Shown here piece by piece: positions 7,314-40,006 of a stretch of DNA of 64,000 nt. A program made the translations under genes and the position numbers. The DNA lies in IMG/VR virus record IMGVR_UViG_3300004097_000003, positions 1,002-65,001 of that record; one strand, given 5' to 3'. Position 1 is the stretch's first letter. Each line of letters opens with the position of its first letter. Under the pieces are notes generated by a model. That model saw only the letters and a list, made by a program, of their open reading frames with translations, was not told where the DNA came from and made no database searches. This DNA is from a virus.

Positions 7314-8024
7314 CTACAAGAATCGTTCAGGTATAGCACCCTTGACTATATGAAGGCAATCCTCGTATGAGTACGTACAGCTATACATACAATAATACAT
7401 GTTAGCCACAATAGTTACGACTTCTGTATCTTTGTTTATGCTGCCCCACATCCCGAGACCTGGCCACAATACAGCCTGGGTATTACGTTTAACAAAAACA
7501 TTATCTTTCTTATATCTTAGGATTTCAGAAAATACTGTTCTTATGTCACAATTAGATACCATCTCGCCAATGTGTCCCGACACGTCTACTCTATAAACAT
7601 TACGCACAAGCTTCCCGAAACTTAGGACAAGTTTCGTTCCTTCCGTAACAGTAGTAACCGAGTGAGGAATTATATCAGGCCTAAAGGTAATAGAATCGAA
7701 GCCTAATAGTTTTCGTCGCTTGATATATGCGGCCTTATTCTTCTTATGTCCCCATAGTTGAAGGACACCTCCACGTAAGGCATTACGTAAGGTGACGTCC
7801 GTTCTAAGATAATCATATCCTGCCCACCAGTGAGAATTATCTACGTGTTGGCATATCTTAGTGCCTTCTTGATACTTAATTAATTTAAGGTCACGCCTGA
7901 TTAACTTGCTTAGCCATTGAGGTATGAGCCACATGACTAAGTATGGAGTTAAGAAGCTTGCGTTTTGCTTGTGTTCAATCCACTTTAAGAACTTTCTATT
8001 TTTCCAGAGGTACATTACCTTCAT
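7314..8024 (-). CDS. 2OG-Fe(II) oxygenase (prolyl-hydroxylase-like fold)
   Basis: LIKYQEG..QHVD (HxD), GGVLQL, ITFRPDIIPHSVTTVTEGTK (distal His and basic 2OG ligand). Confidence 0.8.
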   Translation of the reverse strand: MKVMYLWKNRKFLKWIEHKQNASFLTPYLVMWLIPQWLSKLIRRDLKLIKYQEGTKICQHVDNSHWWAGYDYLRTDVTLRNALRGGVLQLWGHKKNKAAYIKRRKLLGFDSITFRPDIIPHSVTTVTEGTKLVLSFGKLVRNVYRVDVSGHIGEMVSNCDIRTVFSEILRYKKDNVFVKRNTQAVLWPGLGMWGSINKDTEVVTIVANMYYCMYSCTYSYEDCLHIVKGAIPERFL

Positions 8025-24029: not shown

Positions 24030-26384
24030 ATGCCTGATATTATTAGCCTCGCAGATAAGCTGCGAATGACTACAGCAGGTAAGCAGTCTGCACTTAACGC
24101 TGACCAAGGTGGAGTTTGGGTAGTACCTAAGTCTTTCGCTGTTGGTACCTTTACTGGAAGTGTTCCAAGTACCGTGCCTGATGATCTGCTTACAAGTCCC
24201 CTATATGGGGGCAATATACATTACGCTGAGGTAGTCAGTGAGCAATCCGTCCGTTTCACATTTGATATACCTACATCTGTAGGCACGGAAGCAGGGATAC
24301 CAATCGGTGAGGTAGTTATATATCTAGATGATGGCACAGCATTCGCACACGCAGTACTAGCGGAACCTTACGTAAAGCGTAAGGGAATAGGTGTTCGCAT
24401 AGAAGCTATGCTGCATATATTAGAAGCACCTGCCGCAGTTATTAATGTTACATTAAGCGAATTAGGAAGTATTCCTAGCGTTGCCAATGTGGAAGCATTA
24501 CCTAGCCCTGTAACATCACTATCAAATGCTATTAGCGTCCTAGACTTAGTACAGAATGTAGATGGTTCTACTAGCCCGGGCGTTGTATGTAAGTATGGTA
24601 ACGGAGGCCAACATTGGGGCTTCTATGGATATAGCCGTATATTCAGTGAGGCTTTAGGTATAGGTAATGCAGTATCTCCTGCTGAACTTAATCAGTCAAC
24701 TGCTATAACTGAATTTGAATTACAAAATGGTGACGAGTTTATTATCCAAGTAATATCGGGTAATGGTGCAGGCGAAACCCGACTATTCAAACTGAATGGA
24801 AGTGACGAAAACGCCAGCTTCGTAGCAGTAGGTTCCGCATTTACGGCCTTGAGTGATAATTCAGTTGTTAGTATATGGGCTCCAATTGGAGCTAGTGGTT
24901 CATCAGGATGTGCTTGGCCCCCACAAGCCGACGGAGTACCTACAGACTGGGTACTTACTAAGGGTGAAGATAGTTGTCCTGTATGGTCGCCTCCTTATAA
25001 AAACAAAGCACAATCAATTACCCTGTACCGGGAGCCTAGCAAGTTAGAGCTAAAGCCTTTTAATACCATGGCTACTTCTGACCGTATGACTTATGATATA
25101 GGAGATGTGTTCCCCGAGAACAATAACTTTGCCTTAGTTAATACTCAGGGTATAAATCAACATCGTAATGCTTTTGATGTAGTTGAAAACCGTATTGAGT
25201 TTAGTCAACGCCTAGTTAACCAGATCATTCTTGACATACGTACGTTCACAAGAGCACCAAGCTCAGGTACTAAGTTAATATGGCATACTGGTGAGCATAC
25301 TGGTAATGGTAGTACTCAAGAGTTTGATATGCCTAGCTATATCGACAGTCCTGAGTTAGCAATTATTACCGTCGACCATGCGCAGCAAGCCCTTACCTCC
25401 TATACTTTAGATAAAGATAGAAGTAAGATTATCTTTACCGAAGCGCCACCTGCAGGTTCTGTTATTCAGATTAGAACAGTTGAGTATATACAGGAGGAAG
25501 GCTTTAGTACTGATATCGTTAGTGTGTCTATGAAGACTTCTGATCTTACAAACGTAATACTTCTTCCTATATCACCTGAGTCTAAAGACCAAGTATTCGT
25601 CAGTGAGCAGGGCTTCTGGGTACACGCCTCTAGTTATGAAGTAGTAGACAATCGTGTTATCTTCAATGGTTCAATTGAGCCAGAGACAAGCATGGAAGTT
25701 TTAGTATTCCAGAATATACGTGCCGAAGGTGTTGCTAGTGCTGACGTTAAAGGAATGGTAGTAGGTGCTGTAGCTACGGCTAAAGGTATTGAATTAATAC
25801 GACATAATGCACCTAGTATAAAGTTACCTGCACCTGAATTCACTATCAAATCAGGCAGTGGTACCCGTGTGACAGGTCAGTACCCTGAATTCCTTATTGA
25901 AAGTACATTGGCTGAACAGATAGCAAAAGATAGCTTCAATAGTTTTAACGTCCAAGCTAAAGAAGAAGATGCCGAGCAAATTCTTATTACACAACGTATT
26001 GAATTTAAAGGGGATATAATAGTACAAGCTAACGCGGACTTAATGGCTGAGCTTGGACCTGGTTTCATATCAGAAAGCGGATATGAGCGTGGTCAATTCG
26101 TACTAGGTGTAAGAACTACAGGTACAGTAGAGCCTGAGTATGGCCGCGGTATTAAAGGTACTGGTGAGTTTGGCATTAAAGCTGTTAGTGAGACACAAGC
26201 ACAAGCATCAGGCTATGGTAATGCCAGTGTTACGCAATCGTGGAACATAATTAAAGCCAATCATCCTGCAGGCTATATAGACATTGTTGCTAAGATGCGT
26301 ATATCTGACGCAAACATCAGTAAGTACGGAAGTAAACTTACAGCACTTTTAAACATAGTAGTGCTTCCTCAATTAGGTTCTTAG
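24030..26384 (+). CDS. tail fibre attachment / proximal tail fibre protein (784 aa)
   Basis: P2 gpH-like N-terminus (TTAGK, GEVVIYLDDGTAFAHA); three internal repeats ending Y/F-x-V/L...R/K-I/V-x-F. Confidence 0.65.
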   Translation: MPDIISLADKLRMTTAGKQSALNADQGGVWVVPKSFAVGTFTGSVPSTVPDDLLTSPLYGGNIHYAEVVSEQSVRFTFDIPTSVGTEAGIPIGEVVIYLDDGTAFAHAVLAEPYVKRKGIGVRIEAMLHILEAPAAVINVTLSELGSIPSVANVEALPSPVTSLSNAISVLDLVQNVDGSTSPGVVCKYGNGGQHWGFYGYSRIFSEALGIGNAVSPAELNQSTAITEFELQNGDEFIIQVISGNGAGETRLFKLNGSDENASFVAVGSAFTALSDNSVVSIWAPIGASGSSGCAWPPQADGVPTDWVLTKGEDSCPVWSPPYKNKAQSITLYREPSKLELKPFNTMATSDRMTYDIGDVFPENNNFALVNTQGINQHRNAFDVVENRIEFSQRLVNQIILDIRTFTRAPSSGTKLIWHTGEHTGNGSTQEFDMPSYIDSPELAIITVDHAQQALTSYTLDKDRSKIIFTEAPPAGSVIQIRTVEYIQEEGFSTDIVSVSMKTSDLTNVILLPISPESKDQVFVSEQGFWVHASSYEVVDNRVIFNGSIEPETSMEVLVFQNIRAEGVASADVKGMVVGAVATAKGIELIRHNAPSIKLPAPEFTIKSGSGTRVTGQYPEFLIESTLAEQIAKDSFNSFNVQAKEEDAEQILITQRIEFKGDIIVQANADLMAELGPGFISESGYERGQFVLGVRTTGTVEPEYGRGIKGTGEFGIKAVSETQAQASGYGNASVTQSWNIIKANHPAGYIDIVAKMRISDANISKYGSKLTALLNIVVLPQLGS

Positions 26385-26385
26385 T

Positions 26386-28554
26386 ATGATTAATGAAATT
26401 CGTTTAAGGACGTTTACTTCGCAGGTTGGAGAGGATAATGAAGTTCTCTCCAGAGACCCGAAGCAGAACGCTATAGAATACGAAGGAGATACAGGTCCCA
26501 ATACTAGATTAGTTGAGGATGTCGCCTTCAATAAAAAACTAGGTGTACTAACATTCATTAGAAACAACGGTGAAGTCATTGAAGCAAGCGGGTTCTTAAC
26601 AGAGGATCAGATAGGGCACGGCCCTAAAGGTAAGGTAGGTAGAATAGGTAAAGCAGGTCGTGATGGTGAAGAAGGCCGACTAGGTAAAGAAGGACCTGCT
26701 GGATGTGAAGGTGCGCAAGGTAATGCGGGCGATAAAGGGATGTCAGGTAGAGATGGTGAGGATGGTCCTGTAGGTATAGCAGGTACTTCTGGATGTGAAG
26801 GAGATGTAGGCCCTGAGGGTGACGAAGGGGATAAAGGTCCTAAAGGATTCCAAGGATCGATGGGTAAAGACGGGTTAGACTGTATCATAGGCTGTCCTGG
26901 ACCTAAAGGGGAACAAGGTTTAGGTACTTTTGTAGTACAAAAGGAAACACCTACTGAGGAGCACGTATACTTATGGGGCGTTCCTTTTGAGAGCGTTTTA
27001 CCTGAGTTACCCAAAAAGCCTGATGATATGTCAGCTTCAATCAATTCTATAGTAGTTACTATGACTAAGGATAGAGGTACTACTTATACTGCTTCAGGCT
27101 CTTTAATAGTGAGCGACTTTAAAGGTGGTGTAGGACCTTTCTCTATCATTTGGACAGGTGACTATAAAGCTAAGTTAGGTATAACTAAGGATAGTATAAG
27201 TAACGACAGCCTAAGATTATCACTTGATGCCTCCGCTGAAATAGAACCAGGTGAGGTTGCTGAGATTGCTGGCGATGCCGTTGTTACCATAACGGATACG
27301 TCAAATGGTAAACAGCTAGTTTTACCTACTACGTATGAATTTAAAGGGAGCAACAGTACGGTAGTTGCTCCTCCCATATACGGTAACGTACGTGATGCAG
27401 CCGTTGTTGAAGGTGATGACTTAAAGTTCTTAGTAACTACTACGAGTCCTTTACTCTCATCAGTACGAATCACATATACGCTAAAGTCAGGAACAGCAGG
27501 AACCTCCGACTACAAGGATTTGGGTCAAGGTTACATGGACTTAAGCATAGGCGTGGACCAGTTCTACGTTAATGTAGAAGCAATACGCGATTCTATACCT
27601 AACGAAGATGTGGAAACAATGTCGGTTACTGTTAGTATTCCTGGCGTATCTGAATTAAATGCAGGTGATATGACAGCAATAGGTACTATTACTGAGGCTG
27701 ATAGCCATATAGTACCTATTGTCCTAGGGCCTGCAGTGGTGACGGAGGGAAGTACTGCAAAAATAACCATCAGGCTAGGTGGTTCTTACATAGAAGGTGT
27801 CACCGGCGGCTACGCAGTTAAGTATAGAACATTATCGGATACAGCGGGTACGTCGGACTACGTAGCTCGGTCTGGGACTCTAACTTTCACCTATAGTTGG
27901 GAAGAGAAAGTCATTGAAATAGCAACAATAGATGATTCTATTGTTGAAGCCACTGAGCAGTTTTATTTTGAGTTGTACGATGCAGGTGCACATCTTGACT
28001 TAGGTGGAGATACTAAAAAAGTTACGGTTACAGTTAATGACAATGACGAAACTTATAGGGGTTCTACCGGCGGTGGGTGTATAGGATGGGGTGCGAAAGT
28101 TGAAACGCCTGAAGGTACTACATCTATAGAGACTGTATTGATAGGTGATACTATCCTAGGATACGCTGAGCCTAGTATGTCAACAAGTGCTAATTCAAAC
28201 GATCCAGAAGTATTAAACTGGCACGCCCTTGAGTTAAGAGGCAAACGTGCTTGGGTTATGGTTACAAATGCTAGGCATGATACATACCCTCAATACAAAG
28301 TTATCAACGATCTTAACTTAACTTTCGATCATCCTGTCATGACTAAGCGTGATGGCGTATGGCAGTGGCTACCTGCCCTGCAAGTTATAGTTAGTGATAT
28401 TGTCCTAGGCACTGATAGTCAAGAAGTCCCAGTTACAATAGCTACAGAAGTATACAAAGAACTTAAAGTAGTAGAGCTTGACGTTGAGCCTCACGATGTC
28501 TATTATGTTAACGACATACTAGTCCACAATGTGAATAAAATTGTACATAAGTAA
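26386..28554 (+). CDS. collagen-like fibre with two Calx-beta domains and C-terminal Hint autoprocessing domain (722 aa)
   Basis: 29+ Gly-X-Y triplets from 26620; Calx-beta x2 (about 27379-28047); Hint: GGG|C565, T646-F-D-H649, ILVH-N715. Confidence 0.85.
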   Translation: MINEIRLRTFTSQVGEDNEVLSRDPKQNAIEYEGDTGPNTRLVEDVAFNKKLGVLTFIRNNGEVIEASGFLTEDQIGHGPKGKVGRIGKAGRDGEEGRLGKEGPAGCEGAQGNAGDKGMSGRDGEDGPVGIAGTSGCEGDVGPEGDEGDKGPKGFQGSMGKDGLDCIIGCPGPKGEQGLGTFVVQKETPTEEHVYLWGVPFESVLPELPKKPDDMSASINSIVVTMTKDRGTTYTASGSLIVSDFKGGVGPFSIIWTGDYKAKLGITKDSISNDSLRLSLDASAEIEPGEVAEIAGDAVVTITDTSNGKQLVLPTTYEFKGSNSTVVAPPIYGNVRDAAVVEGDDLKFLVTTTSPLLSSVRITYTLKSGTAGTSDYKDLGQGYMDLSIGVDQFYVNVEAIRDSIPNEDVETMSVTVSIPGVSELNAGDMTAIGTITEADSHIVPIVLGPAVVTEGSTAKITIRLGGSYIEGVTGGYAVKYRTLSDTAGTSDYVARSGTLTFTYSWEEKVIEIATIDDSIVEATEQFYFELYDAGAHLDLGGDTKKVTVTVNDNDETYRGSTGGGCIGWGAKVETPEGTTSIETVLIGDTILGYAEPSMSTSANSNDPEVLNWHALELRGKRAWVMVTNARHDTYPQYKVINDLNLTFDHPVMTKRDGVWQWLPALQVIVSDIVLGTDSQEVPVTIATEVYKELKVVELDVEPHDVYYVNDILVHNVNKIVHK

Positions 28555-28564
28555 GGAGAATTAA

Positions 28565-29197
28565 ATGTTAACTAGACCTCCTATGGAATCAGTTAATGCT
28601 AACGGTACTGCCAGTCAGACTGACGTTATAGTTAAAGACGGGAAGTTAGCTGCGGGTAACAAAGAAGATAGTCAAACCGCTGAGGTACAAGATATATTCT
28701 TCGATTCTACTGTCGGTATTCTCGTCATAGAGTTTACTAATGGTGAGACTAAGCGTGTATCTGGGTTCCCTACGTTCGGAACTATACCGGATGGTCCTGC
28801 AGGTCCTACAGGCGACCCTGGTGAAGACGGAAAAGAGGGACGTGACGGACGTGACGGTGAAACAGGAGCACCTGGATGCTTCGGGCCTATTGGACCTAAA
28901 GGAGTAGAGGGTGATCCCGGACGCAATGGCGAAGATGGAGCACCCGGAGCACCTGGACCTAAAGGCTGTCCTGGTCCAGCAGGTAATAAGGGACCTAAAG
29001 GGGAACCTGGAGATGTGGGGGAACCTGGAGTACAAGGACCTCCAGGTGATACAGGTCCTCAAGGCCCTGAGGGTGAGCGTGGTCCAGCAGGTAAAATCAA
29101 CTATATCATAAGTACATCAGACCCAGGAACTAGCGCAGGTGCTGGCAGTATATGGATTAATCCTAACATTACAGAAACCAGCCCGGCTTGGCCGTAG
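28565..29197 (+). CDS. collagen-like fibre protein (210 aa)
   Basis: About 34 uninterrupted Gly-X-Y triplets from 28793; AAGGAG RBS. Confidence 0.9.
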
Positions 29198-29205
29198 GAG
29201 TTAGT

Positions 29206-30273
29206 ATGAGTGACGTTAAAACCAATATGCTAGATATCGGACATATTAGCGGTGACTTACGAGTCCAAGATGGAACGCTTAAAATTGTCCCTGATTCTAT
29301 GACGCCTAATGGCAATGTTACAGGATATATTGATAAAACAGGAGTCTTGACTATTGACATACCTGGCCACGGTACTATACAAGCAAACGGATTCCTAACG
29401 CGTGCTGATATCGGTCAGGGGCATGAAGGCAATAGGGGAAATGAAGGCAGTAATGGAACTGACGGATCGATAGGATTAGATGGCTCCAAAGGTGTTATAG
29501 GTGATAGGGGAGAAGTAGGTAGTAGAGGCGTACCTGGAGTAAGAGGACCCAGAGGCATGCAAGGCAGTTTTGGCCAAAATGGCAATAGTGGTGCGGAGGG
29601 AGTTAAAGGAGATGACGCCTTTGTTAATATGTTTATACAGGAGTCAGACCCAGGGGCTCCAGGCGCAGGCGCAGTATGGGTTAAACCTATATACACCCAC
29701 CTGCAAGAAGCCATTGCTGATATACAAGCCAATTGTAGTAGTGATGAAGATGAAGATACAGAGGAATTACCAGTCATTGAAGGTGATTCGGAATCACATC
29801 CTTATACAAGTGATGGACATGCTACAGGTAGCTTAGTCGTTTACTTCGATACAAGTACGTACACCACTTTAGAAGACAGCGGTAAGGAATTCATACGTGT
29901 AGAAGAAGAAGAAAGATTCATACTAATACTTAGACTACTTTCGCCGTTACCTATTGATGCTGTATTCCAAGTGAAACTTAGAGAGGACCCTACTAATATT
30001 GCATGGGCGGGATTCAAATGGGATTCAGATGACGCTAAGGGTACTGTAGAAAGAACACTTACAATACCAGCAGGTAAGTTAGTCTCTGATGAACTTACCG
30101 CTTACGTTCCTGAGGATTGGGTAATCGCAAGCGATAGCGGTTATGGCGAACTTGCAATTTCGTCCGATTCAGGTAACAATCAAATAATGATTGACGAAAG
30201 TACGTACCAATTTGTCAGTGATTCCCCCAAATTGAACTATATTAAGATGCGAGTCTATCCTAAGATTTCGTAG
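29206..30273 (+). CDS. collagen-like fibre protein with C-terminal Calx-beta-like domain
   Basis: Start 29206 (AGGAG RBS); 22 Gly-X-Y triplets; DPGAPGAGAVWVKP cap; TLTIPAG. Confidence 0.85.
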   Translation: MSDVKTNMLDIGHISGDLRVQDGTLKIVPDSMTPNGNVTGYIDKTGVLTIDIPGHGTIQANGFLTRADIGQGHEGNRGNEGSNGTDGSIGLDGSKGVIGDRGEVGSRGVPGVRGPRGMQGSFGQNGNSGAEGVKGDDAFVNMFIQESDPGAPGAGAVWVKPIYTHLQEAIADIQANCSSDEDEDTEELPVIEGDSESHPYTSDGHATGSLVVYFDTSTYTTLEDSGKEFIRVEEEERFILILRLLSPLPIDAVFQVKLREDPTNIAWAGFKWDSDDAKGTVERTLTIPAGKLVSDELTAYVPEDWVIASDSGYGELAISSDSGNNQIMIDESTYQFVSDSPKLNYIKMRVYPKIS

Positions 30274-30306
30274 TATTACATAATTTTCTAAACACGTGAG
30301 GTGCTT

Positions 30307-30798
30307 ATGTTAACAAGACCACCACTAAATGCAATTGATGCTGGAGCCGAAAGCGGTGACGTAACTTCAAATGCACTTAATCTACAAGTAGAATCTATTG
30401 ACGATAGTATAGCGACTGAGCTTGGTGCTAAATACGATTCAGTCAATGGCTCTCTAGTTATATCATTCCCAGGATACCCACACCTTAGGATAAACGGCTT
30501 CATGACGCCTATTCATATTAAAGAAGGCAGACAAGGTAAACCTGGGTATGAAGGCAGAGAAGGAATCGAAGGCACTATAGGATCTGACGGAGAGCAAGGC
30601 CAGCAAGGATGTTTAGGCCCAGAGGGTCCTCAGGGACGTCCAGGTCAACGTGGACCTAGAGGTCAGATGGGTTCTCAAGGTGAGATTGGTCCTACGGGTC
30701 CTGATGGGGCTAAAGGAGAGCCTGGAGAATTTCTAGTCTATATACAGAACGACGAACCCGTAGGGGTGGAGCACGGTGCGCTGTGGGTGAAACAATAA
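30307..30798 (+). CDS. collagen-like fibre protein
   Basis: Start 30307 (GAGGT RBS; MLTRPP, identical to the 28565 start); 23 triplets from 30526. Confidence 0.9.
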   Translation: MLTRPPLNAIDAGAESGDVTSNALNLQVESIDDSIATELGAKYDSVNGSLVISFPGYPHLRINGFMTPIHIKEGRQGKPGYEGREGIEGTIGSDGEQGQQGCLGPEGPQGRPGQRGPRGQMGSQGEIGPTGPDGAKGEPGEFLVYIQNDEPVGVEHGALWVKQ

Positions 30799-30810
30799 TT
30801 AGGAACTAAT

Positions 30811-33468
30811 ATGGCACTTAACTTAGAACTATCAAGTTCGAATGAAAAGTCAGTACTATACGATGGTGAGTACGGAGATTTAGACTACATAGAAAGCTCC
30901 TTAACTTTATATTTTAGTGTAGAAGGAACTAGCTCGTATTCTGTTACGATTATCGATGCGGATACAGGAAACGACCAGACGTCTATCGTACAAGTCGGTC
31001 AGGGAACACTAACCATAGACCTTCGTATTCTAAAAAGTTATTTCACAATAGGTACTACCGTATTCGGTGGTACTGTTGTGTTACAGATAGACGATAATGA
31101 TAGTACTGATACTGGTCAGTTTAACATCGACTTCCATTTCGCCGTTACAAATAACGCAGTATACGTGGCTCCAGTGACATTCGGCCTCAGTACAAACGGT
31201 ATTGCCATTAGTACTGAGTTACAGCGCAGTAGTGGTATTGATTTCGTTGAGCGCGCCGCGTATCCTACGGTAGAAGTACTTGGAGGCTCAGGTCCTTTCG
31301 AGTACACTTGGGTTCCTGCAAACTTTGAACACTTCTTAATAGAATCAGTAGAAGGTCTTGATACAGACAAACCTACCGTAAACTATAAACTCGATGTTGC
31401 GTCGGACCTACCTGAAGAACTATTTAATTCCGATGGAGGCAAGTGGACTCAGACAGGTATATTTAACGTAAGCGTTCGAGATACCAGTAACGGTGATATC
31501 TCGTTAGGAGAAGTATCCTGGAGCTTCACTGTTAGTGTACAGGAGGAGGAAAGAGGCGACTCGGTAGTTAAAGAAAGCAGAATCATACCAGGACGATTTA
31601 GAGTACGAAACCCTCTCAATAGCTTCTGGTATGACTTATGTTATTATGAAATGTACGTCTTTGATAAAGATTACCTACAGTGGATTAGACTATTCCCTAA
31701 TAAGGTGTTTGTGCGCGATGGAGGCAGCAGTGATTGGATTGAAATAGGTTGCATTACTGATACTTCCTATGACGACCCTTGTGCAGGCTTCGGGTCAGGT
31801 ACCGATTGTTCAGGTGAACCTCAAGATCCTCTTGCGGGATCTGGTGATGGATTTGGTTCTAATGGTCCTTCATACGATGTCGATACAGGATATCCTGCAG
31901 GCTTTGATATGCCTGACAGCTCACTCGGTGGCTACGGTATTAAGATTGCACCTAAAGCCACTGGTTACGATACTCCGGTAGGTTACATAATGCAGCGTCC
32001 CGGACTACAGTCGGAAGAATCTTATGATCCTACAGGTCTATCTGCCGATGAAGGCGCTCACGGTAAGTATAATAGTCCTAACTTAAATGGAGCCAGCACT
32101 TGGGGTAGAGGTGCAGCGGTTACTGAGACTATATATGAATTACCTGCACAGAATGGTTATTACGAACTTCTCTATGCTGCTTACGATTCCGTTAGTATCG
32201 ATGTTTACTACGTAGGTCAGCGAGTAGCTACAACATGTGGACCTGTGCCTAAGTTGACGCGAGGTCTATTGACGTTTAATGTTAACATAGCGACAGGTCT
32301 AGGTGAAAGACGTATCATGATTAGGGTACGTGGTGCCGAGGATGTTAGATGGGCTTACCAAGTAGTAGGTCCTAAAGCTTCACCTGTGCTACAAGATTTC
32401 GATAACCAAGACGATGATGATTACGCAAATATCAATGAGTTTCTTTACGAAGAATCTGAAATGATGCAAACCCAGTACATAGGTACGCCTATGTTTCCTG
32501 CACCCTGTCACGGCACTGTAGGTAATGTAGATCAGACGTTTCCTTGGGCATTATCTGATAGAATTGAGACGCAAAACTGGTTTGAGTACTATCACTATGT
32601 CGGCGAAAACGGGGGTCCAATGGTGCTCGATTTTAGCTCATGGGCAGCCGCTGACTACGTTGAAATCTGGCAAAATGGGGTTCGGATAGCTACATCTCAA
32701 GATTATAACCAAACTCCAGGCTATGTTGATTTTATATATGAAGCCCGTGAAGGCGTTCAAGATATAATGGTTAGAGTGCATACAGAATCAAAAGGTATGG
32801 GTCAAGATTTAAGTACTTGGTACTATACACTATTCTGCCCTAACGCAATTGGCCACAGAAGACAACCATGGCCTTGTGGGCCTGACGTTATATACAGCAT
32901 GGGACATCCTGCCACAGAGGATAACTTTGATATAGATAACGGCGTCGAGCGTGGTGCCTTTAAAGTATACATGCGAGAGTGTACGGCTACTACATTAGTT
33001 AGAGTATTCAATAGAGACGGAGACTTGATAACGTCGATGACGGGCGAAGGTGACTTCGATGTAGAGGCTTTCAATTTCGATGTGGTTACAGGAGAAGTAC
33101 ATAAGGATATATATGTACGTGTTGAGACTTCTATAGGGCATGGTTGGCAATACACCGTAAGTTGTCCAGTACCTTTACTTGATATAATACTAAAACCTGT
33201 AGACCCAAGTGTAGAGTGGTCTATAACCGATGAAATTATACAGGACGATTCTGAGTATGTCGAACTTATCGTAAGCATAAACAAAGCCCAATTGGTTGAT
33301 AGGTCTATTGATTGGGCTACTAGCAACGACACTGCGTATGACCTAACGGACTACTGTGCTGCTAACGGAACTGTGACAATACCTGCTGGACAGACTAGTA
33401 TTAAGATTCAAATTAATTTAGCTCCTTGTGATGCTGAGGATGAGGATGAGGATGCACCTAGCACCTGA
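30811..33468 (+). CDS. tail fibre/adhesin-associated protein with three tandem beta-sandwich repeats and a truncated Calx-beta (885 aa)
   Basis: Repeats ending WAYQVVGP, WYYTLFCP, WQYTVSCP; C-terminal WATSNDTA..DY..GTVTIPAGQTS. Confidence 0.7.
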   Translation: MALNLELSSSNEKSVLYDGEYGDLDYIESSLTLYFSVEGTSSYSVTIIDADTGNDQTSIVQVGQGTLTIDLRILKSYFTIGTTVFGGTVVLQIDDNDSTDTGQFNIDFHFAVTNNAVYVAPVTFGLSTNGIAISTELQRSSGIDFVERAAYPTVEVLGGSGPFEYTWVPANFEHFLIESVEGLDTDKPTVNYKLDVASDLPEELFNSDGGKWTQTGIFNVSVRDTSNGDISLGEVSWSFTVSVQEEERGDSVVKESRIIPGRFRVRNPLNSFWYDLCYYEMYVFDKDYLQWIRLFPNKVFVRDGGSSDWIEIGCITDTSYDDPCAGFGSGTDCSGEPQDPLAGSGDGFGSNGPSYDVDTGYPAGFDMPDSSLGGYGIKIAPKATGYDTPVGYIMQRPGLQSEESYDPTGLSADEGAHGKYNSPNLNGASTWGRGAAVTETIYELPAQNGYYELLYAAYDSVSIDVYYVGQRVATTCGPVPKLTRGLLTFNVNIATGLGERRIMIRVRGAEDVRWAYQVVGPKASPVLQDFDNQDDDDYANINEFLYEESEMMQTQYIGTPMFPAPCHGTVGNVDQTFPWALSDRIETQNWFEYYHYVGENGGPMVLDFSSWAAADYVEIWQNGVRIATSQDYNQTPGYVDFIYEAREGVQDIMVRVHTESKGMGQDLSTWYYTLFCPNAIGHRRQPWPCGPDVIYSMGHPATEDNFDIDNGVERGAFKVYMRECTATTLVRVFNRDGDLITSMTGEGDFDVEAFNFDVVTGEVHKDIYVRVETSIGHGWQYTVSCPVPLLDIILKPVDPSVEWSITDEIIQDDSEYVELIVSINKAQLVDRSIDWATSNDTAYDLTDYCAANGTVTIPAGQTSIKIQINLAPCDAEDEDEDAPST

Positions 33469-33624
33469 TACTTTCCTAGCTACTATACGTAAAGCTTTTG
33501 AATCTGTAATACCATTTATGTGATTTGATAACCATACAGTCATAAAGTATTAGGGAGTAAGGAGTTAGTAGACCTTGCAGGTAAGTCAGGTAAATGGTGG
33601 CAAGTACTTAATTAAGGAATTATA

Positions 33625-35418
33625 ATGGCAAAACGATTTCATGTTGACTTAGCGAATCCTAGTTTCGGAGTCATAGAAAAAGGTAAAGGAATTGTAACGA
33701 TTCTGGAGGTAGCTGAACCTTTACCTCCAGAGCGGCCTGAACCCGAACTAGTAAATGAATACATCTGGGAATGTATATTTGAAAACTTAGATGGTGATGA
33801 GGTGAAGTCTGTACCTCATAATAGCGAAGAAGGCTACGAGTATATGATAGCCCATATAGATCTAGAAGGTGATAACGAGATTACTTGGAGCCACGTAGCT
33901 AGATTTATAGGGGACAATCCCACAGGTACACCTATGGCGCAGAATATAGATAGTGGTGTAGGCGTGAGTGACAATTTTGGTATATTTATAGATACGTCCA
34001 ACGGTAGTTCTATAATAATTAAAATTATGCGTAGACCTCTACCTGTAGCTGCCGACGAAGACAGCAGAGTAACAGGAAATGAGTTCGTCCGTGTTAGCGG
34101 AAATGACTTAAGCTACCAGTGGGATTTAAACTACGAATACTACATAACCTGTACTTATGGCACACTATCTAACTATACAGGAACTATAATTACCGATGAA
34201 GTATCCTACGGCTATTCGAGCATAGATAAATCAACTGCTTGGATAGCAAACATCGATCAGGATAGGAAGAAGTGGGTAGGGTTTGGACATAAATCATCAG
34301 AGCCTGGTAATAAATCTTATCGTACAGTAGTTACAAAGAGATGTGACTTACACAGCGTATGGCGCAGGCCTTGGTCGGCATCTAGCCTTCCAGCTAGTGA
34401 GTTTGCCAATGAGCATAAACGTGTTAAGAATAACATGGATAGTCCTTCTACTACTTTAACGTTCGACTGGAAAGATAACAAAGAATACCTCGTCATGATG
34501 GCGGATACTTCTTCTGACAACGAGGTAGCTTGCGCTAAAGTGTATACTACTCCTGGTCTGTTAGAAGTACCAGGCGTAACTAGACATAAATCAGGTATTG
34601 CTGCACCTGGTGGTAACCCATCATGGATAGAATTCCTACAGACCAGCGTAGGCGGTAGTAAAAAGATAGAGGCGCACCACGGATATATATTAAATATACT
34701 CGAAAGAGATATGTTCTATGACCCTGGGACGTGCGGCGCTGAAGGTTTCGTAGGTCCTGTTAGCTCTATTTCATCTTTAGCTAGTATTAACACAATAGGT
34801 AAAATCGCGTTTATGTCTGACACCCCAGGTATTACAAAATACGGGGCTTCGGCTACAGACGGTTCAGCTTTGGAAGTTGAGGCTTATATAGGGGACTGGA
34901 CAGGCAATGTACCCGATGTATACAATGATAAGTATACTAGCGATATTCAAGGTATAGCGATACCTTATAGTTACGGTGGGGGTATCGCTAGTAACATGAC
35001 GCCTTCCGATCCGTATCTAGCCGAGTCAAAATCTACGGCTTGGAGAGGCTGGTACCTATCCGTCATAGACGAAACTGAACACACTTCTGGTATTAAGTAC
35101 AGTAAGATAACGAGTATCGATATTAACAAGTACGTAGATGGCCACACTTTAGTAATAAGGTGTGAGGACTCTGCTGATGGTGATTATACGCTTGAGAGTA
35201 ATTCCTCGATAGTGGACAACAACACAGGACGCTCCGTTAGCCTTAGTGATATCTACGGAATCAGAACTAAAGCATTACACATAGGATTTCAAGATACCTT
35301 AGCAAGAAATCAGTCAGGAATGGATGCTGAGGTTACTATTGCTATTGAATTTGAATTTCATGATGGTACGATGTTTTCACATACATTGACTCTTGCCGCT
35401 AATAGTGAAATATATTAA
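33625..35418 (+). CDS. putative tail fibre / receptor-binding protein (597 aa)
   Basis: Acidic, beta-rich ORF within the fibre locus; AAGGA RBS; no family recognised. Confidence 0.6.
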   Translation: MAKRFHVDLANPSFGVIEKGKGIVTILEVAEPLPPERPEPELVNEYIWECIFENLDGDEVKSVPHNSEEGYEYMIAHIDLEGDNEITWSHVARFIGDNPTGTPMAQNIDSGVGVSDNFGIFIDTSNGSSIIIKIMRRPLPVAADEDSRVTGNEFVRVSGNDLSYQWDLNYEYYITCTYGTLSNYTGTIITDEVSYGYSSIDKSTAWIANIDQDRKKWVGFGHKSSEPGNKSYRTVVTKRCDLHSVWRRPWSASSLPASEFANEHKRVKNNMDSPSTTLTFDWKDNKEYLVMMADTSSDNEVACAKVYTTPGLLEVPGVTRHKSGIAAPGGNPSWIEFLQTSVGGSKKIEAHHGYILNILERDMFYDPGTCGAEGFVGPVSSISSLASINTIGKIAFMSDTPGITKYGASATDGSALEVEAYIGDWTGNVPDVYNDKYTSDIQGIAIPYSYGGGIASNMTPSDPYLAESKSTAWRGWYLSVIDETEHTSGIKYSKITSIDINKYVDGHTLVIRCEDSADGDYTLESNSSIVDNNTGRSVSLSDIYGIRTKALHIGFQDTLARNQSGMDAEVTIAIEFEFHDGTMFSHTLTLAANSEIY

Positions 35419-35428
35419 GGAGATTACT

Positions 35429-35983
35429 TTGCCTACTGTTCAAAAACATTGGCTAGTTAACGAATTGGACATTAATACTTATGACGGAAGTTATCAAGTA
35501 GAAGGTGTCCCTTACGTTAAGAACCAAAGCTGTGGCTTTATCATTAAACCTAATTGGGGACTTAGTGTTGACGTAGTTAGCGGTAAGACTATCTTGGGTC
35601 CTAAAAAAGGTAACTTAATGTTAGCTATAATACCGGATAGTACATTACATAAGTCCGAGTGGCTAGAAGGCCAGACGTCAGGTGTTATCGACATAGGGCG
35701 TTTTCATTACGAAGATAGCCAAAGCTACGACTTCACTATTGTATCCAAAAGGGAATCAGGTAAAGGAATAGTCGTACCTCCAGTAGGGACGCATAGCTTT
35801 AAGCAAGATGTATATTCATGGCTTAAATCCCCAGATGCTGCGGTATTTTCTTTCGAAATACATTTGGTAATTGATGACACAACGGATTATATACAAGAGT
35901 TCACTCCGTTATTAGTTAATTTAATAAAAACTCAGAAGTCCAGCAATATAGGCTTCCACGCCGAAGACAAAATAGAGGTATAG
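35429..35983 (+). CDS. hypothetical virion-associated protein
   Basis: TTG at 35429 downstream of AAGGAG preferred as start. Confidence 0.6.
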   Translation: MPTVQKHWLVNELDINTYDGSYQVEGVPYVKNQSCGFIIKPNWGLSVDVVSGKTILGPKKGNLMLAIIPDSTLHKSEWLEGQTSGVIDIGRFHYEDSQSYDFTIVSKRESGKGIVVPPVGTHSFKQDVYSWLKSPDAAVFSFEIHLVIDDTTDYIQEFTPLLVNLIKTQKSSNIGFHAEDKIEV

Positions 35984-35985
35984 TA

Positions 35986-38373
35986 ATGGCTACTACCAAC
36001 TTTGCACCTCTGCTTACAGTGGGTGATGAATACGACTTGTCACCTTTTAGTGGCAGAAACATGGTAATACATGCCCAACGCAATAACACAGGATATACGT
36101 ATACATTCAGCATTGACATACTGACTGGTTTTGATCAAGATCGTTACTACGGTCTTATTGTACCTTCGGGACATGGAGAGATACCTCAATCCAATCCTAA
36201 TCAGTTGTTTAAAATCACAGCCGATGCTAAGCTTGTACCTCTTAACTATAGTGATGGTCTTGCAGCACAGATTAGCTACCTTACAGGTGATGATGCAGGA
36301 ACTCCAGATATCAATGTACATTGGGGATCAGTAGCCCAGCTTACGGTTATCTCAAGTACTGCAAATGAGGGAACTGAGGCGCTACTTAGAATATACAGGG
36401 ATGGTGATACTTCGGGTGCGGTTGATATTAATATTGGTTTTATTCCGGGGACCGCGGACTTAGATGATGTACAGTCTATACCTCCATCTGTTACTATGCA
36501 GTCGGGCTTCTCGTTTGTGGATGTACCTATTACTATTAAGACTGACCTTGATTACGAAGGGGACCAGTCATTTTTATTAAGTGCCCAAATAGCAAATGCG
36601 CCTAATGGGGAGGAATGGACAGGTAGTAACTACAGGCAGTTGGTTATTGTAGATACAACTCCTGAATTTCCTGTAGATGTACCCGGTTGTATGGACGTTA
36701 CCGCTAACAACTATAACGATGAGGCTACGATCGACAATGGCAGTTGTACCTATGACCCTGTAGTTGTACCAGGCTGTACTGACCCTCTAGCCAACAACTA
36801 TGATCCACTGGCTACTTCGAACAACGGCAGCTGTACATACGACCCAGTGGTGGTATACGGATGTACTGACCCTTCGGCAAGCAACTATAACCCACTAGCT
36901 ACAGATAATGACAATTCCTGTGTCTATCCGCCTCCTGTAGTGGACTGTCTAGTCGTAGGAGACTTACTGGAAGTAGAACATTGGTTTAAAGTTTGGTTTA
37001 TAGAGCCTGTTGACGGAGAACAGCTACACGACCAAGATTTAATTCAGTATAAGTGGAGCGGTGACTGGGTAACTGACCCTCGTATAGACCTATTCGATTA
37101 CTCGGAGAAAAATCGTGTAGCGATGTTCAAATTCACCAACACTATGTCTTCATCTGATAGTGACGTAGATGTAGACTACGAGGTAACAGCTTGGGCTAAA
37201 GATTTAAGGTTCATTACGTTAGATGTTACTGACGAAGATAGTGCCAATGTAAGCTTCTCTATGCCTTGTGTTATTGCAGGTAATACCCCAAGCTTTAGCG
37301 TAGGCGACATTACAGTTACGGAACCTAGTAGCGGTACCCTAAAAGCATCTGTTTATATAACGGCAAGCGAAGCCGTAACGGGTGGATCTATTACAATCGA
37401 TTACTGTTCGAGTGATATAACCGCTACGTCATCTAGTGCCTCTGTAGATGGAGACAGAGATTACGAGCCTGCCTGCGGTACGGTTACTTTTGAAGTAGGT
37501 GAAAGCTCTAAACAAATAGATGTAACTATAAATACTGATAATCTGTACGAACCTTCCGAGACATTAAAGATGACCATATCTAATGTCAGTCGGGGCAGTA
37601 TATCAGACTCGGTAGGTACTATAGAGATACAAGAATGGATTGTTCCTACAGTATCAGTTACTCTGGCGTCACAGGGAGCTACGAAAGAATTGTTTGTGGG
37701 TCGCGATACTTCCGGATCGACGGATGCGGTTGAGGTGACAGTAAACGGAAATGTCGAATCAAGACGTTTCTTGATGGAACAGGTCCTCAAGGACTATGAC
37801 ATAGCTATATGTGATGAACCCGTTGAGACTGGTCACGGTAATGACGGATGTTCAGACAATTCTAATCCCCTGTCCCACTATAAAGGTGTTGCGGGTGCTA
37901 CTAGTAATTTGACTGTCAACTATATAAATAGCATACAACCTCTTCTTGATTCAGGTACTCAGGAGATTAGTATCCTAGTAATGAATGATAGCTCCGATGC
38001 AATATCCCATGATAACTCTGTATGGGATAACGAGTGGGCTTGGCTAGGAGCTTTAGGTATCCCTGTTACTCTGACCTTCATACGCGTAATAGGGCAGACT
38101 CATATAGATAACGGTACAGGTAACTATGAATTGGCTCGCATCTGGTTTGAAGAAATCGTTGCTGCTGCACCAGGTAATGTAACGGCTTACTTTAAATCCT
38201 ATAGCTCCTACACAACAGGCGCAGCCAGTGACCTAAATGATATACTAAGCAGTACAGTCAATAATGACTATGCGGCAACATGTAACGCCCGACCCGATGA
38301 CGTTATAATAGTAACAGCACCGGACGAAGACTCAGCCTTATCCTTAGCACAGGGAGCCATAACATGTCCTTAG
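35986..38373 (+). CDS. adhesin-like fibre protein: Calx-beta, 3x GCTD Cys repeat, Calx-beta, vWA (795 aa)
   Basis: Calx-beta motifs (GTADLDD, TFEVGESSKQIDVTINTD..E); GC(M/T)D..A.NY...A....SC repeats; LFVGRDTSGS (DxSxS) and ISILVMND. Confidence 0.8.
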   Translation: MATTNFAPLLTVGDEYDLSPFSGRNMVIHAQRNNTGYTYTFSIDILTGFDQDRYYGLIVPSGHGEIPQSNPNQLFKITADAKLVPLNYSDGLAAQISYLTGDDAGTPDINVHWGSVAQLTVISSTANEGTEALLRIYRDGDTSGAVDINIGFIPGTADLDDVQSIPPSVTMQSGFSFVDVPITIKTDLDYEGDQSFLLSAQIANAPNGEEWTGSNYRQLVIVDTTPEFPVDVPGCMDVTANNYNDEATIDNGSCTYDPVVVPGCTDPLANNYDPLATSNNGSCTYDPVVVYGCTDPSASNYNPLATDNDNSCVYPPPVVDCLVVGDLLEVEHWFKVWFIEPVDGEQLHDQDLIQYKWSGDWVTDPRIDLFDYSEKNRVAMFKFTNTMSSSDSDVDVDYEVTAWAKDLRFITLDVTDEDSANVSFSMPCVIAGNTPSFSVGDITVTEPSSGTLKASVYITASEAVTGGSITIDYCSSDITATSSSASVDGDRDYEPACGTVTFEVGESSKQIDVTINTDNLYEPSETLKMTISNVSRGSISDSVGTIEIQEWIVPTVSVTLASQGATKELFVGRDTSGSTDAVEVTVNGNVESRRFLMEQVLKDYDIAICDEPVETGHGNDGCSDNSNPLSHYKGVAGATSNLTVNYINSIQPLLDSGTQEISILVMNDSSDAISHDNSVWDNEWAWLGALGIPVTLTFIRVIGQTHIDNGTGNYELARIWFEEIVAAAPGNVTAYFKSYSSYTTGAASDLNDILSSTVNNDYAATCNARPDDVIIVTAPDEDSALSLAQGAITCP
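36682..36942 (+). repeat. three tandem 87-nt (29 aa) coding repeats, GCTDPxAxNYxxxAxxxxxSCxY
   Basis: Units start at 36682, 36769 and 36856. Confidence 0.9.
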
Positions 38374-39035
38374 AAGTTCCTGTATTTGTACAGAACGTAC
38401 CCATTAGGCCTTTGCAGCGTAAAGTACAGTGGTACGAGTTTACGCCGTCAAAAGTAAATGGTTTCTTCGACTTCGTACTATCACAAGGGCGTAAGCCTAT
38501 AGGCCGTATCGATATATTCCTAGGAACTAAGTTAATTCAATCGACCAGTCCTACAGATGCACCTGAATTTGATATACAGACCTGGAAGAACTTTAATGCC
38601 AGTAAGTTTGCGATGGAGCCTAGAGGCGCTATTGAGTTTAGTAATATAGATAAATTCTTTATAAATAAAGATGATGTTATTTACGTCAGGATAGAGGCAG
38701 AATTACCGGCAGCCTTTAGATTTTCACTTAATAGATGCCATATCCTGGATTTAAGTGAGTCTATCGGCCTCGTTGTAGATGTATGTAATAGTACTAGATT
38801 AATTGTCGATCAAGGCCGCCAACCTTGTAATTTCAGAATAGACTTTGGTAAGATACTTAGTACGGATTTTACTCTATCGGAGCATACCAGTAAGATACTG
38901 TCGGTGCCTATTAGCGCAGACGCTTCGGTTGAGTGGTCTTATGTACCAGGCCGCGATATTAGAATTCGAAGTATAGAACTTTCTACCATAGTACCCTATA
39001 AAACTAATATTCGAATAGTGAGGAGTAATGGCTAA
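38364..39035 (+). CDS. fibre-associated protein (223 aa)
   Basis: N-terminal half resembles the repeats of 30811-33468 (WYEF..., IDIFLG..LIQST, IYVRIE). Confidence 0.6.
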   Translation: MSLEVPVFVQNVPIRPLQRKVQWYEFTPSKVNGFFDFVLSQGRKPIGRIDIFLGTKLIQSTSPTDAPEFDIQTWKNFNASKFAMEPRGAIEFSNIDKFFINKDDVIYVRIEAELPAAFRFSLNRCHILDLSESIGLVVDVCNSTRLIVDQGRQPCNFRIDFGKILSTDFTLSEHTSKILSVPISADASVEWSYVPGRDIRIRSIELSTIVPYKTNIRIVRSNG

Positions 39036-39243
39036 CTCAATCTTATTAAGAGCTAGGGATTCAGATGGGAGTTGGATTGAAAACTTCCATCTAGGTGCTT
39101 GGTTGATGCGCAATGAAGATAATACCGCTTGGGTACCAATGACAACTGCAAATACTAGAATCGCTAATCCTGATTATGATCCAAATGATTTAGATTCAAT
39201 TATGTGGTTGGTTCCCGGCGACCCAAGACAAACTGGAGATTAG
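39028..39243 (+). CDS. small fibre-associated protein (71 aa)
   Basis: GAGGAG RBS; R(D/N)xxxxxW repeats as in the middle of 30811-33468. Confidence 0.65.
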   Translation: MANSILLRARDSDGSWIENFHLGAWLMRNEDNTAWVPMTTANTRIANPDYDPNDLDSIMWLVPGDPRQTGD

Positions 39244-39244
39244 T

Positions 39245-40006
39245 ATGTTAACTAAACCGAAGATTAGTATGATAGCTCCAAGTCAGAACTCTGCTGATAA
39301 TGATGTAGTGAAGACGGCTGGAGGTAAGTTAAAGTCGGAGCAGAATGTAGTACCTATAGGGGACGCCGCAGTTAAGAGTGGCCGATATGATACTACGACA
39401 GGCACTTTGATGATAACGTTAGGTGATGACAGTACTTTAGTCGTGGAGGGTTTTCCTACTGACCAGAGTATAGGAACTGGCCCTAAAGGTGATAGAGGTG
39501 CTGTAGGAAAAGGAGGCCGTCCTGGCAAGAACGGCAAAGATGGATTAGATGGCCCTCAAGGATGTCCAGGGTCTAAAGGAGATAAAGGTGAAATCGGTCC
39601 TACAGGGCCAGAAGGCCCTATGGGTATAACGGGTGAGCAAGGTATTCAAGGTATTCAGGGCCAGCAAGGTGACAGGGGACCTAAAGGAGAACCTGGGCAA
39701 GAACCTATTTACGTATACAGTGAAGCAGGTAGTGAAGAACGAACAGTACAATATGGCCGTGTCATGCTGTGGGGTCACTATCAGTCGGACGGTAGCGTTA
39801 ACACTGCTGATGTTAGGTATCCTCAGGCTACAACTAGACTTACACAAACTGTAGTAGCCTTCTTCGCTAATCCTCAATCCGTTCAAGCTCAAAACTATGA
39901 GATTGAAGCGCAGACGAAAGAAGGGTTTGCTCTACGCGTACCATCATCATTTGCCTTACCCCTTGATGACGATTGGGACTTCCAATGGATAGCACTAGGA
40001 GATTAA
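39245..40006 (+). CDS. collagen-like fibre protein with C-terminal tip domain (253 aa)
   Basis: 25 Gly-X-Y triplets from 39479; C-terminal MLWG...FQWIALG resembles common fibre-tip lectin-like domains. Confidence 0.85.
   Translation: MLTKPKISMIAPSQNSADNDVVKTAGGKLKSEQNVVPIGDAAVKSGRYDTTTGTLMITLGDDSTLVVEGFPTDQSIGTGPKGDRGAVGKGGRPGKNGKDGLDGPQGCPGSKGDKGEIGPTGPEGPMGITGEQGIQGIQGQQGDRGPKGEPGQEPIYVYSEAGSEERTVQYGRVMLWGHYQSDGSVNTADVRYPQATTRLTQTVVAFFANPQSVQAQNYEIEAQTKEGFALRVPSSFALPLDDDWDFQWIALGD

Follow-up and report, generated by a model that had tools for sequence, protein, structure and literature searches.

Register-fixed cysteines in the collagen-like tail-fiber proteins of a jumbo phage, with signs that two of the chains share one fiber

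A cysteine at a fixed height in paralogous collagen rods

We analyzed a 64,000-nucleotide stretch of viral DNA, comprising positions 1,002 to 65,001 of the IMG/VR record IMGVR_UViG_3300004097_000003 (hereafter the window), in which five paralogous genes encode collagen-like tail-fiber proteins that we call A to E. In A, B, D, and E, a cysteine stands at the X position of the tenth Gly-X-Y triplet of the collagen rod (10X, or Cys10), and across related jumbo phages this residue is nearly invariant. Moreover, a second cysteine at the X position of triplet 20 (20X, or Cys20) occurs in A and B, and among the relatives these two proteins either both have it or both lack it. As the best explanation, we propose that 10X and 20X are disulfide cross-link sites set at fixed heights, with A and B lying in one common fiber, a reading that we consider evenly poised between right and wrong.

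For comparison, we gathered 47 further loci (labeled L001 to L047) from jumbo phages of the PaBG/NCTB/Y3/JA11 type, drawn from five annotated phages, 34 IMG/VR loci retrieved via the 784-amino-acid (784-aa) protein encoded just upstream of A, and eight metagenome contigs with B orthologs. Dereplication below 90% identity left 94 sequences (26 of A, 23 of B, 29 of D, and 16 of E), whose triplets were numbered from the seventh residue after the motif G-F-(L/P/M)-T. An original prediction, made from the window alone, held that every rod begins at a constant distance from this motif, and this is so in all five paralogs, though with a spacing of six residues and not the eight proposed. The same prediction had located G-C-x at triplet 10 in A, B, D, and E and at triplet 20 in A and B, and all of these codons lie where it put them. 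The proteins thus compared, which share a small beta N-domain, six linker residues, a collagen rod of fixed length, and a short Trp-containing cap, are laid out as follows (window coordinates).

26386..28554, + strand: A, 722 aa; matches to Collagen (3e-14), Calx-beta (2e-13), phrog_38766, and phrog_8745
26590-26601, + strand: GFLT, where the N-terminal beta domain of A ends
26620-26925, + strand: A collagen; 29 triplets, a Cys in a Gly position, and 4 more triplets
26704..26706, + strand: A Cys at X of triplet 10 (TGT); Cys in 23/26 dereplicated A orthologs
26794..26796, + strand: A Cys at X of triplet 20 (TGT); found only where B likewise has Cys20
26881..26895, + strand: C-I-I-G-C of A; its first Cys takes the Gly position of triplet 30, its second the X position of triplet 31
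28565..29197, + strand: B, 210 aa; N-domain, rod, and the short cap xIIS..DPG....G..W.NP
28763-28774, + strand: B motif GFPT
28793-29098, + strand: B collagen; 34 unbroken triplets, and 34 in 23/23 dereplicated orthologs
28877..28879, + strand: B Cys at X of triplet 10 (TGC); 23/23 dereplicated orthologs
28967..28969, + strand: B Cys at X of triplet 20 (TGT); 10/23 dereplicated B orthologs, always with A Cys20
29188..30273, + strand: C, 361 aa from TTG at 29188 or 355 aa from ATG at 29206
29419-29616, + strand: C collagen; 22 triplets
30301..30798, + strand: D, 165 aa; N-domain, rod, and cap
30496-30507, + strand: D motif GFMT
30526-30732, + strand: D collagen; 23 triplets
30610..30612, + strand: D Cys at X of triplet 10 (TGT); 29/29 dereplicated orthologs; apart from Gly, no other residue of the D collagen is invariant
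39245..40006, + strand: E, 253 aa; N-domain, rod, and a C-terminal domain of ~100 aa
39449-39460, + strand: E motif GFPT
39479-39703, + strand: E collagen; 25 triplets
39563..39565, + strand: E Cys at X of triplet 10 (TGT); 16/16 dereplicated orthologs

Conservation of the cysteine and of rod length

Alignment of homologs, which the original prediction had named as the check on register, gave Cys at 10X in 91 of the 94 sequences (97%); the entropy of this column is 0.20 bit, whereas all other X/Y columns have 1.1 bit or more. Next in rank are 7Y, with Asp in 83%, and 7X, with Arg in 56%, and the most frequent residue of most columns stays under 50%. In fact, among 5,326 X/Y positions in the four families there are 114 cysteines, 111 of which sit at 10X or 20X. 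Such a pattern is not due to chance, since the generic collagens from the same search have Cys at about 0.3% of their X/Y positions, family members counted in. Judged by these counts, the Cys position is under strong selection over orthologs of 35-50% identity, and the expectation that the position is selected amid diverged X/Y surroundings was borne out, the window paralogs sharing 2-21% X/Y identity outside triplet 10.

That the Cys might be an inherited accident, an ancestral residue without a role, is scarcely credible. The common ancestor of all paralogs could have had it, but the remaining X/Y positions have fallen to the low identities just given, the Cys has been kept in spite of synonymous codon turnover (TGT and TGC are both used at 10X among orthologs), and cysteine is nearly excluded from the rest of the rods. 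Conservation statistics thus effectively refute this explanation.

Counted from the motif, Cys10 is present in all B, D, and E sequences, and in A it is missing only from the JA11-like clade of Dickeya phages and from L040 and L041, whose A-like proteins are short. Two A proteins with a Gly-to-Ala interruption of the rod keep Cys at triplets 10 and 20 from the motif, and the short A proteins of L031 and L042 retain Cys10. The A-position proteins of L040 (2291-3010) and L041 (5256-5990), which come from two metagenome lineages, are 239-244 aa long with 33 triplets and have no Cys at triplets 10, 20, or 30; they carry one at X of triplet 29, and their cap is in register with that of B. Rod lengths are likewise fixed across phages of 35-50% identity, namely 29 triplets, a Cys, and 3-4 more triplets in A, 34 triplets in B, 23 in D, and 24-25 in E.

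The 30-residue period originally proposed holds for two proteins, A with 10X, 20X, and the triplet 30 Gly position and B with 10X and 20X; it does not extend to D and E, which have one Cys only. Cys20 varies between lineages and is absent from several. In window A, the predicted C-I-I-G-C-P does span triplets 30-31, and its first Cys (26881-26883) replaces Gly. This Cys, Cys30(G), is kept in all A orthologs save the short A-like proteins of L040 and L041, and the Cys at X of triplet 31 is confined to the window among the A orthologs.

Paralog C, as had been noted, is a collagen without Cys in its rod; its sole Cys lies at 29734, beyond the collagen, where a cap and a C-terminal domain of ~200 aa follow. 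The rod of C is closest to that of D (21% X/Y identity), and at none of the other 47 loci was a C gene found between B and D. Probably, it is a recent duplicate that lost the Cys.

A charged block, G-x-D G-K/R-D G-R-D G-R-D, spans triplets 4-7 of A, B, and E (in B from 28802-28813 onward), three to six triplets before the Cys, and the N-domain with triplets 1-10 makes up the conserved part of each paralog, divergence growing past the Cys. An alternative, which we think unlikely, builds on this arrangement and takes the Cys for a contact or ligand residue. The N-domain and the first ten triplets, with the K/R-D block at 4-7, would then dock in a socket of the baseplate or sheath, and the thiol at the distal edge would bind a partner protein non-covalently or coordinate a metal between rods. 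The rise in divergence beyond the Cys and the rank of 7Y and 7X as the next most conserved columns are in keeping with docking, as is paralog C, which is without both the charged block and the Cys. Still, the motif around the Cys is no longer than G-C-x-G-P, the adjoining 784-aa protein has no invariant Cys among the orthologs compared, and in our helix model (below) the X side chains of one helix diverge and cannot meet on one metal. Moreover, docking does not account for A and B having gained and lost Cys20 together.

A profile of the N-domain plus 12 triplets, searched against a library of 1.84 billion proteins, found five B-type members in the top 150, all of them with Cys10. The rest of this top 150 was swamped by long generic collagens.

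Coupling between A and B

A and B agree in their Cys20 state at every one of 39 distinct loci; both have the residue in PaBG, for example, and neither has it in NCTB, L028, L040-L042, or any Erwinia/Dickeya phage. In a phylogeny of B and D, for which the Cys columns were masked, four changes of Cys20 are needed in A and four in B, and these fall on the same branches. When independent changes were simulated on this tree under the assumption that they are proportional to branch length, an identical tip pattern arose in at most 3e-5 of the runs. The rods of the two proteins are also matched in length (33-34 triplets in A and 34 in B), and both caps begin at rod residue 103 in most clades, the PaBG clade being an exception.

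Charge pairing was then scored for two X/Y contacts between chains, Y(t)-X(t) and Y(t)-X(t+1), which are the closest ones in a triple helix. Homotrimers of A had a mean score of 0.1, with -10 for that of the window, while B homotrimers scored +22 and the best register of an ABB helix likewise +22, so that B could also stand alone. The excess of a mixed helix over composition-weighted homotrimers was +7.3 for true A/B partners versus +2.5 when A and B came from different phages, and no other paralog pair had a comparable excess. This A/B excess is maximal when B is not shifted in register against A, and in 15 of 15 clade representatives it is higher in register than out (Wilcoxon p 0.0007). In addition, non-Gly residues at Gly positions occur in A only, with none in the 23 B or 29 D sequences, and the same holds for Gly-to-Ala interruptions, which lie at triplets 5, 6, and 16. 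Such interruptions would be easier to tolerate if A supplied only some of the three chains.

By these scores, A alone is a poor homotrimer. Most likely, A and B share one fiber, whether they mix in one helix or form a bundle in register, and the charge data favor a mixed A/B helix over two homotrimers placed side by side in register. In a more specific form, A and B would be wound into an ABB or AAB helix whose composition and register are locked by disulfides between A and B at both triplet 10 and triplet 20, which we put forward as a tentative proposal, more probably wrong than right. The suggestion that different paralogs might mix in general is thereby narrowed to A and B, for which Cys20 co-variation, length, and charge speak; the pairs A-D, A-E, B-D, B-E, and D-E gave no sign of it, and D and E appear to behave as separate homotrimers. 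An ABD or a D/E heterotrimer was considered and rejected, as these pairs lack a charge excess and score alike with true and mismatched partners.

Proposed cross-links and their geometry

What was observed directly is the position and conservation of the cysteines, together with the co-variation of A and B, their matched length, and their in-register charge complementarity. The mechanism that we propose on this basis is as follows. Each rod would expose a Cys at X of triplet 10, about 86 Å from the N-domain, with a second one in A and B about 86 Å further along. After lysis, once the virion has left the reducing cytoplasm, these thiols would oxidize to disulfides and tie chains together within a rod, between rods anchored at equal height, or both. 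The cysteines of A and B at triplets 10 and 20 would then be the rungs of their common fiber, and, where the rod ends distally, A Cys30(G) would act as an axial staple within the helix. Should the A/B helix be mixed, B would be a "helper" chain having only anchor, rod, and cap, and the one free thiol left per level would link neighboring fibers at a common height.

To examine the geometry, we built an ideal triple helix from backbone torsions of the (Pro-Pro-Gly)10 crystal structure and checked it against known parameters. The model reproduces these, with a rise of 8.65 Å per triplet and a twist of 53 degrees; successive chains are offset by -102 degrees and 2.88 Å, and Gly N lies 2.7 Å from X O. 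Its distances from C-beta to C-beta between neighboring chains are these.

Gly to Gly: 3.9 Å (model)
X to Y: 4.8 Å (model)
X to X: 8.5 Å, pointing outward (model)

At 3.9 Å, Cys30(G) of A is well placed for an intra-helix disulfide. The cysteines at 10X and 20X, which lie ~8.5 Å apart and point outward, suit a bond to a neighboring rod or else need local distortion within the helix, and an undistorted intra-helix knot at these positions, as the original prediction could be read to imply, is thus not supported by the model. Ten triplets are the axial repeat of the 10/3 (Rich-Crick) collagen helix, in which cysteines 30 residues apart face the same way and would therefore suit a ladder between parallel rods. 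With 7/2 symmetry, such cysteines are about 172 degrees apart (model). An AlphaFold 2 (AF2) monomer of D had a mean predicted local distance difference test (pLDDT) score of 57, with a four-strand beta N-domain at about 75 and the rod as a low-confidence extended chain, and a sequence search of the PDB with the D profile found collagens only and nothing for the N-domain.

Several points weigh against this proposal. That the 10X and 20X thiols are oxidized, just as the disulfide chemistry, its timing, and the pairing of one Cys with another, is something we infer. Neither Erv1/ALR nor thioredoxin-fold proteins were found in the contig and four complete relatives, a weak negative given that the Erv1 control matched nowhere; as no phage oxidase or thioredoxin was found, oxidation would be spontaneous after lysis. 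Three cysteines per level is an odd number, which leaves one thiol unpaired unless rods pair, and the X-X distance of the canonical helix model is too long for an undistorted bond within it. The JA11 clade and L040/L041 lost the A Cys10 while B, D, and E kept theirs, so the site at level 10 is independent of A. The Cys20 co-variation comprises only 3-4 independent contrasts, for which a paired-contrast sign test gives p 0.25 with significance out of reach, and a shared environmental pressure could lie behind the joint pattern. Moreover, in-register charge complementarity fits a mixed helix and side-by-side helices alike. Finally, the proteome table of PaBG lists products other than these small proteins (PMC7412058), and a look for virion proteomics covering them found none. 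The separate idea of an even Cys count per baseplate position was rejected, since three of the four fibers in the JA11 clade carry Cys10 and one does not.

The cysteines could instead form a transient folding checkpoint, in which short-lived interchain disulfides or thiol contacts hold the register in the cytoplasm and the mature fiber is reduced. Gly-X-Y repeats can mis-register, and a marker at fixed height would help; the P22 tailspike, as PMC3357383 describes it, assembles via cysteines and is without disulfides when mature, and a disulfide at a Gly-to-Cys site of human alpha1(I) speeds folding (PMC6039012). Yet the disulfide of a Y-position Cys delayed folding in the same system (PMC6039012), the homologous N-domain already sets the register, the cytoplasm disfavors disulfides, and no phage oxidase or thioredoxin was found in the contig and four complete relatives. 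We hold such a checkpoint to be decidedly improbable.

Covalent modification of the Cys is a further alternative and, in our estimate, a very improbable one. The adduct would be a thioester made by a Hint-like domain (of A or of neighboring "intein domain" proteins), an S-linked glycan, or something else. After the rod, A has a W-containing cap, the Calx-beta domain, and a weakly Hint-like C-terminus (28078-28554), where G-G-G-C precedes a domain of ~150 aa with an H-N end, and the A orthologs of NCTB and Y3 are annotated as having an intein domain. The Pfam Hint_2 match, however, does not reach the threshold (E 0.15), a thioester on Cys would be labile, and the short A proteins of L031 and L042 keep Cys10 without a Hint-like region. 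Nor is any glycosyltransferase conserved beside the genes in the annotated relatives. Docking, checkpoint, and modification each explain the conservation of the Cys, but none of them also explains why Cys20 was gained and lost jointly in A and B, as fixed-height cross-links in a common A/B fiber would.

Comparison with known collagens

Closest in kind are the collagen-like tail fibers of phages and prophages (PF01391; PHROGs 8745, 38766, 5073, and 6320), which have the same Gly-X-Y rod between virion-attachment and distal domains and are likewise encoded in the tail-fiber module. The EPclA-D proteins of Escherichia coli O157 prophages are reportedly of this type. What sets the present proteins apart is a rod length fixed to the triplet and one Cys that is near-invariant over four paralog families.

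In C1q, the collectins, ficolins, and adiponectin, collagen trimers are joined near their N-termini by inter-trimer disulfides, an unpaired Cys bonding to a neighbor, and C1q is assembled from three different chains. In these bouquet-like collagens the Cys lies in a short non-collagen N-terminal segment, whereas the phage Cys is ten triplets inside the helix and the N-domains of A to E contain no Cys at all. Type III collagen has a C-terminal cystine knot, G-P-C-C-G, with two adjacent Cys per chain whose interchain disulfides sit where the homotrimeric helix ends. Window A has a similar pair in Cys30(G) and Cys31(X); however, the cysteines at 10X and 20X are single and mid-helix, and only window A has two Cys four residues apart.

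In collagen VI, a single Cys within the triple helix makes an intermolecular disulfide (PMC12354898). Here, the likeness is a close one, as the phage rods also have an isolated, conserved Cys inside the Gly-X-Y region of each chain, which in collagen VI fixes the supramolecular register. Collagen VI is, on the other hand, an animal heterotrimer folded in the endoplasmic reticulum, and its Cys pairs with the coiled-coil region of an antiparallel molecule, while the rods of the phage run parallel from a common anchored end and fold in a reducing cytoplasm.

For the A/B pair, type I collagen offers the nearest parallel, being an AAB trimer of two gene products with equal rod length, in which a Cys at the same residue of two chains gives an intra-helix dimer. 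In human alpha1(I), the variants G766C (at a Gly) and R780C (at a Y position) form chain dimers held by disulfides and lose little stability (PMC6039012); alpha1(I) dimers also arise from further Arg-to-Cys substitutions (PMC8872221). Since these variants do form dimers, the local helix distortion needed for an intra-helix bond does occur. They are, of course, pathogenic mutations, whereas the phage Cys is the conserved wild-type residue, and the A/B heterotrimer is a proposal. As expected of such a heterotrimer, A and B have rods of matched length, and in-register charge pairing favors the mix over an A homotrimer.

Genomic setting and phage group

The window lies within an 83-kb viral contig with an IMG/VR completeness of ~32%. 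Its collagen genes belong to a tail-fiber/baseplate module at 24.0-40.5 kb, where every gene is on the + strand, and all five open reading frames (ORFs) match the Pfam Collagen family PF01391 (33-64 bits versus a gathering threshold of 27.2) with rods of 22-34 Gly-X-Y triplets. Matches of the window collagens in PHROG were to phrog_38766 and phrog_8745, both phage tail-fiber families. Adjoining A on its upstream side is the protein that served as synteny marker and as phylogeny source.

24030..26384, + strand: 784-aa protein of the baseplate or fiber module; phrog_21488 (3e-217)

With B and the 784-aa protein as queries, tblastn retrieved jumbo myophages only, namely Phage NCTB, Pseudomonas PaBG and Lu11-type phages, and the Erwinia/Dickeya phages Y3, Yoloswag, Alexandra, SNUABM, and JA11/AD1, with identities of 35-50% between orthologs; a megablast of the region against phage records gave zero matches. 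Gene order was compared by tblastn and annotation in NCTB, PaBG, SNUABM_5, Y3, and JA11, in the 34 IMG/VR loci, and by PHROG matches. The order of 784-aa protein, A, B, D, large proteins, and E, located 3' of the baseplate wedge genes, is common to the relatives. By protein similarity, then, the window comes from a PaBG/NCTB/Y3/JA11-group jumbo myophage with paralogous collagen-like tail-fiber genes. This group has been named "hairy Myoviridae", and the JA11 orthologs of B, D, and E have been labeled tail fibers 1-3 (PMC6143709). Neither that paper nor the PaBG genome paper (PMC7412058) mentions collagen or cysteine in these genes.

Some other features of the neighborhood were also noticed. 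Calx-beta domains are found in A (27801-28050) and in a downstream 795-aa protein (35986-38373), with E-values of ~1e-13 each. On the - strand, a 236-aa ORF at 7314-8024 has a sub-threshold match to the 2OG-Fe(II) oxygenase family PF13640 (E 0.007, 17.8 bits versus a cut-off of 27) and could be a hydroxylase relevant to the collagens. In two metagenome relatives, HNH-endonuclease-like ORFs with faint or weak Pfam matches lie inside or beside the collagen cluster (L041:6678-7655 and L040:11727-12644).

Implications

Collagen-like phage fibers and disulfide-linked collagens are both already known. To our knowledge, bacterial and phage collagens have been regarded as simple homotrimeric spacers without cross-links, and our literature search found no publication on a register-locked cysteine, triplet-fixed rods, or a co-evolving chain pair in viral collagen. 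A Cys fixed to the residue, in rods fixed to the triplet over deep divergence, points to a fiber apparatus of precise geometry, probably one that is hardened by oxidation outside the cell. If the mixed A/B helix is true, it would be a natural heterotrimeric collagen from outside the animals, and one built by a virus. Such a helix would also provide a minimal and genetically tractable model of collagen chain selection and register control, and its registered, disulfide-lockable heterotrimers would be a natural biomaterial design. For the phages themselves, these findings would give proteins and chemistry to the unexplained fibers of the "hairy" jumbo phages.

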